Shown here in pieces: positions 5,606 to 9,951 of a DNA stretch of 20,000 bases. Position 1 is the stretch's first letter. Each line of letters begins with the position of its first letter. Below the pieces are notes generated by a model. The model was not told the origin of the DNA. It saw only the letters and a list, made by a program, of their open reading frames with translations, and did no database searches. The stretch lies in IMG/VR virus record IMGVR_UViG_3300042867_000160, one strand, 5' to 3'. A program made the translations under genes and the position numbers. Origin of the DNA: an uncultured virus (IMG/VR IMGVR_UViG_3300042867_000160) (taxonomy: Duplodnaviria; Heunggongvirae; Uroviricota; Caudoviricetes).

Positions 5606-6160
5606 ATGGCTAACGAAGCTAAAACTGCAGAAGCAACTGCACCAACAAATGCAAATACAACAGCTGACGCTGTTATTGATGTTATAGTAGAAGAGGTTCC
5701 ACAAGTGGAGACTCTTGATGGCGCTGTATTTACAGTTCAAGCTAAAGACATCAATAGCAGTATTTATGTTGCTCCTCGTGATTTCTTTCACAATGAGCTT
5801 CGCAAAGACAACAAGCCTAATCCACTTGCAGGTCAGCAGTATTGGATTATTAATTACAATGGCATTGCATTTACCACAATGGATAAATCGTTTATTGATG
5901 CCAAGTCTAAATCTGATTTGTACGAGGTTAAATTAAAACGTACAGGTCAGTATTTAGAGCTCGTTAACTTTGAAACAATCAGCGGTAAGCGTAATACTGA
6001 TGCATTGTTAAAAGAGGTTAAAGCTATTGAATTAGACATGCGTGAAATGACTGCGTGGTCTAATAAAAGAATTGCAATGATTGGTGCTCTTGATGCTACT
6101 TCAGCACCTGCCGTCAATGAGGATTTGCGTGCTCAATTAATGGCTAACATTAATCAGTAA
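5606..6160 (+). CDS. Hypothetical protein, first rightward (putative early) gene
   Basis: 184 aa, A-rich leader, Ala/Thr-rich N-terminus, own downstream terminator-like hairpin. Confidence 0.8.
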   Translation: MANEAKTAEATAPTNANTTADAVIDVIVEEVPQVETLDGAVFTVQAKDINSSIYVAPRDFFHNELRKDNKPNPLAGQQYWIINYNGIAFTTMDKSFIDAKSKSDLYEVKLKRTGQYLELVNFETISGKRNTDALLKEVKAIELDMREMTAWSNKRIAMIGALDATSAPAVNEDLRAQLMANINQ

Positions 6161-6164
6161 CATT

Positions 6165-6201
6165 GAATAGAGAGAGCCTTCGGGCTTTCTCTTATTCTCT
6201 T
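6165..6201 (+). terminator. Probable intrinsic terminator
   Basis: GAATAGAGAGAGCC-TTCG-GGCTTTCTCTTATTC, a C(UUCG)G tetraloop hairpin 4 nt after the stop codon. The U-tract is weak. Confidence 0.7.
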
Positions 6202-6499: not shown

Positions 6500-6631
6500 A
6501 TGATAGGATTCTTTAACTTAGAACATTGTGTGTTCTGTCATATTATATCTATTGGTGATGATGGACATATAACTATTAATGCTAATGGTTATGAATACAT
6601 TACATCTATGGATCAAATGATATTGTTGTAA
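6500..6631 (+). CDS. Small hypothetical protein (43 aa, MIGFFNLEHCVFCH...)
   Basis: Start reassigned to the ATG directly after the repeated leader. Confidence 0.55.
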   Translation: MIGFFNLEHCVFCHIISIGDDGHITINANGYEYITSMDQMILL

Positions 6632-6842
6632 TGAAATAACACCTATAAAACTGTATAATGTCACTAGTTGGTGTTCTTAGATCTAGATTACAACATTACA
6701 CATCTCACAGAATATATATAATCGTCAACTGTATGAATCACAATGCACGTTTGGGTTATATTATACATATGTGAGATGAATAAAGCCTAGAAGCGGGCTT
6801 CAGTAGAGATATAATGCGAAGTGAAACTCTACTATTTTTTTT
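6624..6842 (+). ncRNA. Candidate structured RNA ending in a terminator-like hairpin
   Basis: Stems 6624-6632/6687-6695 (9 bp) enclosing 6638-6643/6670-6675; 6701-6709/6770-6778 (9 bp); 6783-6787/6796-6800; 6802-6808/6827-6833 followed by a T run. Confidence 0.45.
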
Positions 6843-6864
6843 CAACCTTTTAAACAATAAAGAA

Positions 6865-7074
6865 ATGTATATTATACATAATAAGACTAGACAGACATCT
6901 TCAAATATTGATGGTCATTGGCCATTAGACTATCTTGAAAAGATGTTAGAGAAAGGTGACAGAATTATTGTCATCAGTCTTTATTCTAATACTATTAAAG
7001 TTCCATATCATGTGGATTATAATGGTGTTAAAGAATGGGAGTGGGAAAACTTTCCATTACTTAAATCGTATTAG
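6865..7074 (+). CDS. Small hypothetical protein (69 aa, MYIIHNKTRQ...)
   Basis: Start reassigned to the ATG after the second leader repeat. Confidence 0.65.
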   Translation: MYIIHNKTRQTSSNIDGHWPLDYLEKMLEKGDRIIVISLYSNTIKVPYHVDYNGVKEWEWENFPLLKSY

Positions 7075-7114
7075 TTCTCTATGGTTGTAGAGAATCCCTT
7101 CTATATTTCTGTGG

Positions 7115-7297
7115 GTTATCAGAAAGATTAATGCATCATAACTATCTTCCCAAGGGATAGCAATTGTAACAAAGATTGAAAGTATTCTACACATCTGTTT
7201 GGGCTCATATAAAATTGAGTACCTATTTGACCTAGCCCTTAGGCTCTGGTTTAGATGTTGTCATAGAGTGATTACAATTGAATGCAGAGGGGATAAC
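7115..7297 (+). ncRNA. Twister-ribozyme-like structured RNA with a long P5 insertion
   Basis: UAA-UGCA-UC...CUAUC-UUCCCAAGG-GAUAG-[CAAUUGUAA...UUACAAUUG]-AA-UGCA-GA-GGG follows the twister layout (P2, P4/L4, P5, T1 CCC/GGG, T2 UC/GG). P1 is weak and P4/L4 are non-canonical. Confidence 0.55.
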
Positions 7298-7433
7298 TAG
7301 ATGGCTTAAATAACCATTGAAAACTACATCATGCTCACAGACGTTAATGACTATTTTCGAAGATAGTTCGACTTAGAATGTATGTAGAAGTTTATTTTAC
7401 ATTGTATTTTCAAACCTTTTAAATAATATTCAA

Positions 7434-7811
7434 ATGAAAGATTTAAACTATTACACTGTGTACAACCAAGATGGTTTACATATGGGCTCATATCAAGATA
7501 AAGATTGGGCATATTACACTAAAGATAAATACAATGGTCACATCAAGGTAACAAGCGAAGCTATACCTAATAGAGACAATCATTTATACTATAGTGGTTT
7601 AGCTAAAAGAGCTATTAATCATCAACGACGTGTATTAATGCGTAGTTGTATTTATGCTCTTTGTTGTGTCATAATTATATTATATGCATTAGTGTATAAG
7701 ATAATGACAGAACCATTTGATATGGATGTGCATTTAGCATTTATGTTCTTTGGTATTATTGGTTGTGTATTTATTTATTTATTGTCACACGCAGAAAGGG
7801 GAGACGTTTAG
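7434..7811 (+). CDS. Hypothetical membrane protein (two C-terminal TM segments)
   Basis: 125 aa; hydrophobic runs CIYALCCVIIILYALVY and LAFMFFGIIGCVFIYLL. Confidence 0.75.
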   Translation: MKDLNYYTVYNQDGLHMGSYQDKDWAYYTKDKYNGHIKVTSEAIPNRDNHLYYSGLAKRAINHQRRVLMRSCIYALCCVIIILYALVYKIMTEPFDMDVHLAFMFFGIIGCVFIYLLSHAERGDV

Positions 7812-7823
7812 TCTCTCTTTTTT
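7795..7823 (+). terminator. Intrinsic terminator
   Basis: AAAGGGGAGAC-GTTTA-GTCTCTCTTTTTT overlapping the TAG stop. Confidence 0.7.
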
Positions 7824-7841
7824 GTATAAATATATAGCATT

Positions 7842-8309
7842 ATGGACGTTGTCAAACTAAGAAAGCTAGCACACAAGAGTATGTGGACATATGGTAAATA
7901 TGATGGATACACTGTTTCAAATATAATAATCACTAACAAGATATATTTGTTATGGGCTTATTATAATCTTGAGAAGATATCATTTATAGATGAAATACTT
8001 GATGATTTTGCTAATACATATGATAACTTTAAGCTTATTGATAAGCCAGGTAAAGATCCTGATTATTATAAAAGTATAAGAAGATTTTCTTATAATGATT
8101 TAACTAAACAACAGCTGTTTAATAAAATGACTGCTAATAGAATTAATGGTAAACAACACAGTCAAGCTTTACTTACAGCTTATAGAAAAGCTAAATCAAA
8201 AGAAATACATTCTTTTAGAAATGAACATTTATCAAAAGAATCATTACAGGCATTGAATCATGGTAATTCATATAATATACAAGTTATAGTACGTCCAAAA
8301 AATAAATAA
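7842..8309 (+). CDS. Hypothetical protein with an N-terminal (F/Y)GKY.G...YLLW domain (ExoX C-terminal/DUF3820-like)
   Basis: MWTYGKYDGYTVSNIIITNKIYLLWAY matches the small FGKYKG...YLxW domain pattern; basic C-terminus. Confidence 0.6.
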   Translation: MDVVKLRKLAHKSMWTYGKYDGYTVSNIIITNKIYLLWAYYNLEKISFIDEILDDFANTYDNFKLIDKPGKDPDYYKSIRRFSYNDLTKQQLFNKMTANRINGKQHSQALLTAYRKAKSKEIHSFRNEHLSKESLQALNHGNSYNIQVIVRPKNK

Positions 8310-8695: not shown

Positions 8696-8727
8696 AGAGC
8701 TCTTGGACATTGTCCTTGAGCTCTTTT
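8696..8727 (+). terminator. Terminator-like hairpin
   Basis: AGAGCTC-TT-GGACA-T-TGTCC-TT-GAGCTCT followed by TTT. Confidence 0.6.
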
Positions 8728-8754
8728 ATTATTCATTTATTAAATAACAATACT

Positions 8755-9951
8755 ATGAAGCCAGCTTATCCAGTTATTAACAATCACAAAGAATGTAACA
8801 AATGTCATATTACAAAGCAAGTTTCTGAATTTGGTAAATGGAAGAGTGCTAGTGGTTTATATCTTCTTACTTCAGACTGTAAGAAATGCAGAGCTGAATA
8901 TCAAATAAAAAGAAATAGAGCTGCAGGAATGAAACCTCGTAATGAGTATCCAGTTACTGATGGACATAAAGAGTGTGCTGACTGTCATACTATAAAACCA
9001 GTTTCTGAATATTGGAAGGCAGTGAATCCAAGTGGAAAGATTACATATGATAGATTATGTAAGATATGTATGAAAAAAAGTTTGGTAGTAAAAGCTAGGC
9101 TAAAAGGAGTACAACCTATGAAAAGACGTCTAGTTATTGATGGTCACAGTGAATGTAGTACGTGTCATGTAGTAAAACCTTTATCTGACTATGTTTTAAG
9201 AAAGAATAAGGATGGATTACCTTCACCATCTGCTCACTGTAAAGAATGTACTAATAAAAAGCAAGTAGAAAGAGCTAGACTAAAAGGAATACAGCCTAAG
9301 AAGTATTATCCTGTAATTGATGACATGAAACTATGCGGTAAATGTAATGTTACAAAGCCAATTAGTGAGTATTCAAATAATCGACACCACTGTAAAGATT
9401 GTATGCGTGTTTATTTTATAAACGCGAGGAGATTAAAAGGTGTACAGCCTAAGAAATGTTATCCTATCATTGATGGTCATAGACAATGCGTTAGATGTAA
9501 TCAAGTAAAATTAGTTGATCAGTATAGAAAAAGTCCTAGAAACAAATTAGGTATACTAGGACATTGTATAGAATGTGATCTAAAAGAAAACCTACAATAC
9601 AGAAGAGCTAAAGGCATGGTTCCAAAAACATTTGTTGCTCATCCTATTATTGATGGCTTAAAGCAATGTTATGTATGTAATGAAAATCTTTCTGTTGAAC
9701 AGTTCTCAGTAAATAGTAAAGGACATATGGGACATTCGTGCAAAGCATGTAATAGCAAAAAAGAAAGACCTTATCGTATTAAATACTACAAAAGAGATTC
9801 TGAAGGATTAACTGATAATTATCTTGCAATGGTTATACGTCGACATGTTCCTATTCATAAAAAGGATATTCCTGAAGACATCTTTCATATATTCAGAGAA
9901 AAGATTAAGATTCAACGTAAAATTAAAGAAGTAAAGAATTTAAACCAATAA
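8755..9951 (+). CDS. Protein with six tandem C4 zinc-finger repeats
   Basis: Likely start is the ATG at 8755 (MKPAYP). Six CxxC...CxxC units of about 50-60 aa, linked by R(L/A)KG(V/I/M)xP...P(V/I)IDG; helical C-terminus LTDNY...DIPEDIF. Confidence 0.85.
   Translation: MKPAYPVINNHKECNKCHITKQVSEFGKWKSASGLYLLTSDCKKCRAEYQIKRNRAAGMKPRNEYPVTDGHKECADCHTIKPVSEYWKAVNPSGKITYDRLCKICMKKSLVVKARLKGVQPMKRRLVIDGHSECSTCHVVKPLSDYVLRKNKDGLPSPSAHCKECTNKKQVERARLKGIQPKKYYPVIDDMKLCGKCNVTKPISEYSNNRHHCKDCMRVYFINARRLKGVQPKKCYPIIDGHRQCVRCNQVKLVDQYRKSPRNKLGILGHCIECDLKENLQYRRAKGMVPKTFVAHPIIDGLKQCYVCNENLSVEQFSVNSKGHMGHSCKACNSKKERPYRIKYYKRDSEGLTDNYLAMVIRRHVPIHKKDIPEDIFHIFREKIKIQRKIKEVKNLNQ

Follow-up and report, generated by a model that had tools for sequence, protein, structure and literature searches.

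What kind of RNA, if any, does an uncultured phage carry in the gap between two of its small genes? The window analysed here is a stretch of 20,000 nucleotides (nt) from the virus record IMGVR_UViG_3300042867_000160, and the subject is a 163-base element at 7129-7291 on its + strand. The element lies between two small genes of a lake phage, within a gap of 359 nt that separates the co-directional open reading frames (ORFs) 6866-7074 and 7434-7811. The phage origin is evident from a recognisable large terminase, portal, DNA polymerase and DnaB-type helicase, and lake water is the label of the sequencing runs that contain the window. An earlier, sequence-only reading had proposed a twister-like ribozyme with a large insert in its P5 arm and a competing, possibly regulatory, strand upstream, or else a new RNA class with a twister-like core; it had also suggested a search with the Rfam twister models, and a collection of homologues from crAss-like genomes to be examined for covariation. 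For the twister class (Roth et al. 2014) we follow the summaries in PMC5408937 and PMC6154101. From its relatives we conclude that the element is a member of a large phage RNA family, and we propose, with a probability of roughly 65%, that it is a type-P1 twister-class self-cleaving ribozyme with a predicted cleavage site, belonging to an uncatalogued phage-borne sub-family. Below, P denotes helices (a prime marks the 3' strand), L denotes loops, and T1 and T2 denote the two pseudoknot pairings.

A large family of phage RNA elements

Three related loci reached through the downstream ORF could be aligned with the window in two invariant blocks, UUAAUGCAUCAU..CUAUCUUCCCAAGGGAUAGCAAUUGUAA and UUACAAUUGAAUGCAGAGGGG, with all of the sequence between and around them divergent. 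Pattern scans of IMG/VR returned 16 loci and then 36 (three of these loci, representing two distinct sequences, without the 3' block), looser patterns returned 122 loci, and about 350 matching stretches are estimated for the whole collection. A pattern scan of prokaryote genome contigs gave 20 matches, with model-confirmed members in 11 loci (12 matches, E < 1e-10) that are mostly binned with Sediminibacterium, Chitinophagaceae and other Bacteroidia. Altogether, pattern scans and a covariance model yielded at least 143 distinct copies from uncultured phage contigs with both cores and flanks parsed, including natural short forms of 52-59 nt at four loci (L037, L023, L043 and L053). One covariance model (R1) was built from four short forms and a second (R2) from 16 relatives, with the window and its near-identical record excluded. 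The second model matched the window end to end at 7119-7301 (78.3 bits, E 4.1e-20, 58 kb searched); because it was made from relatives only, this match indicates that the element is real and beyond chance.

The element was present in all 35 phage records searched, mostly as a single copy and in 4 records as two copies; these include all eight records of at least 90% completeness (112-180 kb). The record nearest to that of the window (G001) is a 13-kb fragment with the same element. Two copies lie close together in 10 of 99 loci. On the - strand of L015 (331-650), two copies that differ in their P4 and P5 helices directly adjoin, with no base between the GAGGGG of one and the UAAUGCA of the next, and cuts at both sites would free a unit-length RNA with 5'-OH and cyclic-phosphate ends. 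Degenerate copies were also seen. At L003 2546-2830 (the same as in L013), an intact 5' half, UAAUGCAUCAUUCUAUC, stands 159 nt upstream of a 3' half that runs from L4 through P4' and P5 onwards, and this copy looks interrupted at the P4/L4 border; at L018 (- strand, about 480-615), only the portion from L4 onwards remains. The two score 38.5 and 36.4 bits, respectively, with the covariance model.

Relatives among named phages are distant. The large terminase of the window is 39.5% identical to that of a Leptolyngbya phage, about 32% to those of Cellulophaga phages and about 27% to those of crAss-like phages, and the DNA polymerase is at most 31.5% identical to that of any GenBank phage. The crAss-like affiliation suggested earlier therefore holds only as a distant one (27-32% terminase identity, counting the Cellulophaga phages), the closest phage being that of Leptolyngbya. 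A blastn search of 6600-7900 against GenBank phages gave no match; with the 46-nt 5' core as query, the only matches were two partial ones in Aeromonas phages, at chance level. Of the cultured phages with the nearest terminases, neither Leptolyngbya phage Lbo-JY46 nor Cellulophaga phage phi17:2 contained a family member (no match; 12.5 bits, E ~1). These searches brought no cultured carrier of the family to light.

Covariation in a putative double-pseudoknot fold

Every copy follows one consensus order: (P1) N-AA, P2 (UGCA or UGUA), YCAU(U/AA), P4 (5 bp), UUNNNAAGG, P4', P5, A(A/G), P2' (UGCA or UACA), GA-NNN, (P1'). Comparison shows that the RNA folds into P2, then P4 with L4, then P5 and then P2', with the CCC of L4 pairing with the GGG behind P2' to form T1 and the GG of L4 placed to pair with the YC behind P2 as T2. 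Covariation statistics refer to an alignment of 101 distinct sequences and counts over 143 copies to the parsed set. Standard pairs occupy 94.3% of cells, against 79.0% in shuffles (none of 500 reached the observed value) and 30-46% when the partners were slid.

The individual helices follow this pattern. P4 is 99.6% paired; each of its five pairs shows compensatory change, and 33 different helices occur among the 143 copies. The first four pairs of P5 are 99.2% paired, likewise with compensatory changes. P2 is 99.7% paired and takes the form UGCA/UGCA or UGUA/UACA, its third pair being C-G in 78 sequences and U-A in 19, with a U.G intermediate at P2 in two copies. T1 is also 99.7% paired; each of its three pairs carries compensatory changes, in 2, 13 and 6 sequences, and the pseudoknot occurs as CCC/GGG, CAC/GUG, CCA/UGG and UCC/GGA. 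Inspected by eye, each listed CAC loop faces GUG and all five CCA loops face UGG, while two of the three UCC loops face GGA and the third faces GGG through a wobble; the filtered 143-copy set, for which T1 pairing was required, holds 12 CAC/GUG and 6 CCA/UGG copies. At T2, pairing is possible in 100% of cells (first pair C-G in 75 sequences and U.G in 26, second pair C-G in 101 of 101), with one-sided variation, the GG of L4 having been fixed by the search patterns, and with GC/GC as the canonical form. With its register fixed, P1 is 70.3% paired, and covariation extends to each of its four pairs. The closing pair of P4 is variable (C-G 67, A-U 16, U-A 13, G-C 3, U.G 1). The three nucleotides before P2', comprising the last of P5 and the junction, are GAA in 46 and GAG in 93 of the 143 copies, giving a junction of AA or AG.

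Covariation in P2, P4, P5 and T1, with T2 always C-G or U.G, thus bears out the twister-type architecture of the sequence-only reading, whose coordinates and strings were all confirmed directly in the sequence. The deviations that it listed, namely a T2 of UC/GG, an extra U in L4 and a P4 without the G-C clamp, proved real and constant across the family. The homologue set provided the compensatory changes at T1 and P4 and kept the AA of the cut site and the GA behind P2'; for T2 it provided one-sided variation only. Folding energy by itself is weak evidence for the element: the minimum free energy (MFE) of 7095-7297 has z = -1.84, with 11 of 200 shuffles equally stable, and that of the whole gap has z = -0.70.

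Putative catalytic positions and proposed class assignment

Among 30 distinct members of the UGCAUCAU sub-class, scanned with no constraint on the triplet preceding P2 or on the two bases that follow P2', AA at the cut site was found in 30 of 30 (29 UAA, 1 CAA) and GA after P2' in 30 of 30. A search permitting GA or GC found GA in 142 of 143 copies. Directly before the predicted cut, the 143 copies have U (86), C (23), G (21) or A (13); variability at this base is likewise reported for twisters (PMC11662667). In twisters, the cut-site A and the G behind P2' act as general acid and general base (PMC11662667, PMC6154101).

At the gathering cut-off, Rfam returned no match in the window and no twister match in 20 loci. 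Below the cut-off, the type-P1 twister model (twister-P1, RF03160) gave a single match, exactly on the element, in each of two of the five short-copy records, once with 21.3 bits in a 180-kb genome (E 0.004) and once with 19.6 bits (E 0.006). The model was the best of 4227 Rfam families over a 111-nt stretch of L053, where P1, UAA, P2, AAA, P2' and GAGGG were aligned; its consensus at the P5-P2' junction is UAAA. The Rfam search suggested earlier was thus unsuccessful for the window copy and yielded matches of about 20 bits in two of the five short-copy records.

The family has the following features in common with the type-P1 twister: (i) the order P1, UAA, P2, L2, P4/L4, (P5), AA, P2', GAGGG, P1'; (ii) a four-pair P2 and an L4 of the form U-CCC-AA-GN; (iii) T1 from the CCC of L4 to the GGG after P2', and a putative T2 between two bases of L4 and the two directly behind P2; (iv) a conserved A at the cut site and G after P2', with a variable base before the cut; and (v) an optional upstream hairpin P0, an optional P5 and an association with phage genes (PMC6765202). 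It differs in a T2 of YC/GG instead of GC/GC, the first pair being flipped, in the lack of P3, which is present in 78% of known twisters, and in a P5 that is found in every copy, as opposed to about 1% of known twisters. Since the defining twister features that we tested were found (order of elements, four-pair P2, P4 closing L4, three-pair T1 and conserved catalytic bases), with the exceptions of the L4 architecture and the Rfam cut-off, a new RNA class is not needed to account for the element.

Several observations weigh against this assignment. The best Rfam scores, at about 20 bits, are far from the RF03160 gathering cut-off of 67.2 bits; three of the five short-copy records gave no twister-P1 match at all, and the window copy (6950-7500) gave no twister match in Rfam at E up to 10. 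L4 of the family has an extra 5' U relative to the canonical twister loop, and the closing pair of P4 is ordinary and variable, whereas a G-C pair at this position is called essentially invariant in solved twister structures (PMC5408937). The L4 architecture of those structures, in which the invariant G-C plus a U.A trans pair extend P4, is not reproduced, although U and A occupy the matching positions. Variation at T2 is one-sided, which is compatible with pairing without amounting to proof. The window copy lacks a P1 in the adjacent register and carries a 9-nt upstream complement to the G-strand of T1. The alignments were fitted to the model structure, and several core letters, and with them much of the core invariance, were imposed by the search patterns; an artefact is less likely because slid partners paired in only 30-46% of cells, and this control and the free-position test together answer the caveat only partly. 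Finally, the role in transcript processing discussed below is inferred from position.

We nevertheless file the family as a variant branch of the twister class because tested natural twisters tolerate wobbles in either pseudoknot, P5 arms and P1 imperfections, and about 94% of tested natural candidates were active despite many imperfections (PMC11662667); P1 is dispensable for twister cleavage (PMC5408937). As read from its copies, this branch lacks P3, has an altered T2 and L4 and possesses an obligatory P5, and catalysis by the family is likely. No description of the branch was found in literature listings and abstracts, although it may be among the sequences of the original 2014 paper or of PMC11662667. 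If the assignment is right, standard Rfam annotation misses a whole branch of twisters, one in which the first T2 pair is flipped, L4 is longer, P3 is lacking and P5 spans 12 to 204 nt; these features matter for the descriptors used in ribozyme searches and for engineered twisters in which P5 serves as the insertion site.

Two known ribozymes can be set beside the family. The Osa-1-4 twister of Oryza sativa is about equal in size to the 52-59-nt short copies, and the twister-sister ribozyme (Rfam RF02681) had no match in any of the Rfam covariance scans run on the window or its relatives. Osa-1-4 (PDB 4OJI) is also of type P1 without P3; unlike the family it has no P5 (PMC6154101), and it is compared here by description. 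For twister-sister, some similarity of the P4 loop has been described, and the same source describes it without the double pseudoknot, unlike the family (PMC6154101).

Alternative explanations

The same fold could serve without cutting, as a structural or protein-binding leader element such as a stabiliser or a docking site for a protein of phage or host. Rfam scores far under the cut-off, the departure of L4 and of the P4 closing pair from the canonical active-site scaffold, and the persistence of degenerate copies lacking the 5' half in L003 and L018 are consistent with this; we consider it rather unlikely, given that the invariant cut-site adenines and the invariant G after P2' have no obvious non-catalytic role, that the active-site pseudoknots are retained (T1 by compensatory change, T2 pairable throughout) and that nearly all tested natural candidates cleave. 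An element acting as DNA, for instance through inverted repeats that serve recombination or bind a protein, and without any RNA function, would suit cores that are near-identical across otherwise mosaic loci and that flank swapped sequence. It is hardly credible in view of the covariation of a long-range loop-to-strand pairing (T1), wobble (G.U) pairs that exist solely in the + strand reading, conserved asymmetric loops, and an orientation that is almost always that of the flanking genes. The sequence-only reading had further envisaged a switchable ribozyme, in which UCCCUUCU (7095-7102) pairs with AGAGGGGA (7286-7293), blocks T1 and keeps cleavage off until the strand is displaced. In the window this pairing extends over 9 contiguous positions, a length of at least 8 being reached in only 12 of 143 copies, and it appears in the pseudoknot-free MFE fold of 7095-7297; moreover, twisters with a P0 hairpin were cleaved to a lesser extent in a large-scale assay (0.40 versus 0.85), for which the authors suggest an inactive alternative fold (PMC11662667). 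Across the family, however, at least six contiguous complementary upstream bases occur in 77 of 143 copies, where shuffling of the upstream sequence leads one to expect 69.8. A C-rich tract is missing from L001, which is the closest of the relatives whose upstream region differs and whose downstream gene is 98% identical, and L127 and L193, whose T1 is CAC/GUG, retain an upstream CUCCC that no longer matches their GUG strand. Judged by these comparisons, the competing strand is not a conserved switch of the family, and we regard a switch as very improbable; the upstream complement may nevertheless lower the activity of the window copy.

The interior of the P5 arm raises a further possibility. 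P5 regions range from 12 to 204 nt with a median of 85 (143 copies), and those of the four short copies measure only 12-19 nt. They are more structured than shuffles, with a median z of -4.2 (n = 31; mononucleotide shuffles, base helix included) and z = -2.64 for the P5 of the window. Grouping of the 125 interiors of at least 30 nt gave 109 unrelated groups, 98 with a single member; as many as 16 unrelated interiors share one identical 5' core, and cores that differ in their P4 helices hold related interiors in some cases. The large insert noted earlier in the window is thus real and hypervariable, with its inner helices all present in the MFE fold. The window interior (7170-7271) resembles no other member's interior and has no 12-mer in common with the rest of the window on either strand. 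L036 and L039 have related 110-nt P5 arms with pairing-preserving changes, for example CAAGUU/AACUUG in place of AGAGUU/AACUCU, and this lineage, at least, retains its P5 interior as structure. A UACAAU in the 3' strand of P5 was considered as a -10 box and rejected: a promoter scan was at chance (27 sites versus 25.5 expected), and the P5 sequence covaries in relatives. It is conceivable that the P5 interior is itself functional, as a small regulatory RNA, an aptamer or a decoy, and that the conserved twister core is a docking and processing scaffold that trims, stabilises and displays an exchangeable RNA cassette. The presence of more than 100 unrelated, structured interiors in base-identical cores speaks for such exchange, as do the compensatory changes inside P5 of L036 and L039 and the paired copies in 10 of 99 loci, with the whole unit in L015, where copies abut, liable to be excised. 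Nevertheless, the four natural copies almost without an interior show that none is required, no motif is common to the interiors, the window interior is without any 12-mer shared elsewhere in the window, and variable peripheral arms are ordinary in ribozymes, so we consider the scaffold distinctly unlikely. The simplest reading is that the P5 interior is a structured, freely turning-over peripheral arm in a mosaic intergenic region, unnecessary for the fold because short forms exist. Should the interiors be cassettes after all, phages would swap modules by recombination at the cores, possibly by means of homing elements; the ribozyme would free the module as a stable 5'-OH RNA or, where copies abut, as an excised unit with circle-ligatable ends, and the host or rival phages might be targets of the freed RNA.

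Genomic context and proposed role

For a self-cleaving twister, the position of the element suggests a role in transcript processing. By analogy with the twister mechanism, the fold would bring A7130, as general acid, and G7287, as general base, to the U7129-A7130 bond, and this bond would be cut during or just after transcription, leaving the upstream RNA with a 2',3'-cyclic phosphate and the downstream RNA with a 5'-OH and a compact ribozyme at its beginning. The element sits in a cluster of co-directional small phage genes, often right after a hairpin and a U-rich tract. Of 24 loci, 23 have a co-directional nearest ORF on the upstream side and 19 on the downstream side. Among the 143 copies, 52 have a hairpin that ends within 15 nt of the cut site, compared with 20.0 (sd 3.5) for shuffles, and the spacer after the upstream hairpin is 58% U, against 34% overall; this arrangement matches the optional P0 of twisters and has the look of a terminator. 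A cut would part the upstream from the downstream message and give both of them defined, structured ends, the upstream message ending in a hairpin and a cyclic phosphate. The outcome would be the processing or insulation of an early polycistronic transcript, and we suggest that this transcript is probably cut at U7129/A7130.

Such a role would agree with proposals for known ribozymes. Hammerhead and twister ribozymes have been proposed to process phage or bacterial polycistronic transcripts into separate transcripts of different stabilities, a role only proposed in print, and although the chemistry of twisters is well studied, their biological role in bacteria and phages is described as still open (PMC6765202); the family is likewise intergenic, between co-directional genes and near phage genes. 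No constant protein neighbour was found around the element, and the flanking small ORFs are mosaic. Processing of tRNAs was rejected as a general role, tRNA genes lying within 1.5 kb in only 4 of 20 loci. Of the 24 runs that contain the stretch, two are RNA runs whose contigs cover only 6600-6860 and 7466-7705, and these are uninformative on the expression or the ends of the element. As the family is large, usually single-copy and found at a defined place in gene clusters, the transcript-processing role is directly testable.

Some relatives carry tRNA-like genes 9 to 150 nt downstream of the ribozyme (L063 1402-1501, - strand; L067 1223-1361, - strand; L069 from about 1640, + strand). Their acceptor, D and T arms are intact, and the region of the anticodon arm is replaced by a long unrelated insert, which brings the genes to 100 and 139 nt overall; the Rfam tRNA model scores them at 38.4 and 35.6 bits, and ARAGORN calls none of them. 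The window contains no such tRNA-like element, and ARAGORN found no tRNA in it.

Features of the locus

Table 1. Features of the element and its surroundings, in window coordinates.
Feature	Position	Strand	Remarks
Upstream small ORF	6866-7074	+	69 aa from the ATG at 6866; start in the ORF list, 6814
Hairpin UUCUCUA-ugguug-UAGAGAA	7075-7093	+	Right behind the stop codon; in MFE folds
UCCCUUCU	7095-7102	+	Complement of AGAGGGGA at 7286-7293; paired in the pseudoknot-free MFE fold
Hairpin UUUCUG/CAGAAA	7108-7127	+	P0-like position; ends 1 nt before UAA and 3 nt before the predicted cut
GUUAUC	7115-7120	+	In the loop of the 7108-7127 hairpin; alternative partner of GAUAAC 7292-7297 as a bulged P1
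UAA	7129-7131	+	Predicted scissile bond U7129/A7130; A7130 at the twister general acid position
P2 5' strand, UGCA	7132-7135	+	Partner 7283-7286
L2 linker, UCAUAA	7136-7141	+	U7136 and C7137 as 5' half of T2
Predicted T2 pairs	U7136.G7155, C7137-G7154
P4 5' strand, CUAUC	7142-7146	+	Partner GAUAG 7156-7160
L4 loop, UUCCCAAGG	7147-7155	+	CCC 7149-7151 as T1 strand; GG 7154-7155 as T2 strand
P4 3' strand, GAUAG	7156-7160	+	Family covariation
P5 base helix 5' strand, CAAUUGUAA	7161-7169	+	Nine bp with 7272-7280
P5 interior, 102 nt	7170-7271	+	Predicted imperfect rod with a three-way junction
Inner helices ACAUCU/AGAUGU, CUCA/UGAG, AGCC/GGCU	7191-7196/7253-7258 (first helix)		All in the MFE fold
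P5 base helix 3' strand, UUACAAUUG	7272-7280	+
AA junction	7281-7282	+	P5 to P2'
P2 3' strand, UGCA	7283-7286	+
GA	7287-7288	+	G7287 at the twister general base position
GGG, T1 3' strand	7289-7291	+	Partner C7149-C7151
GAUAAC	7292-7297	+	Possible P1 3' strand; no P1 in the adjacent register in the alignment row of the window copy
Leader motif UUCAAACCUUUUAAAUAAU	7409-7427	+	6 nt between its end and the downstream ATG; second occurrence at 6840-6858, ahead of the upstream ORF
Downstream small ORF	7434-7811	+	125 aa; identity 98% in L001 and L002, 72% in L003

Neighbouring features

The upstream ORF had no family match and no relative among viral contigs. A leader motif, UU(U)CAA(A)CCUUUUAAA(U/C)AAU, stands on the + strand just before the ATGs of the two consecutive small ORFs (2 matches versus 0.04 expected) and is conserved ahead of the homologous ORF of L001-L003 as well; in this phage group it probably serves as a promoter signal or as one for translation start. 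Further downstream, an ORF of 413 aa at 8710-9951 (+ strand) shows repeated matches to endonuclease VII, HNH and Lar-like restriction-alleviation families and to the Pfam Stc1 domain, and its product looks like a multi-zinc-finger, nuclease-like protein. On the other side of the element, a strong terminator-like hairpin, AGAGAGAGCC-UUCG-GGCUUUCUCU, occupies 6169-6192 (+ strand), right after the ORF 5606-6160.

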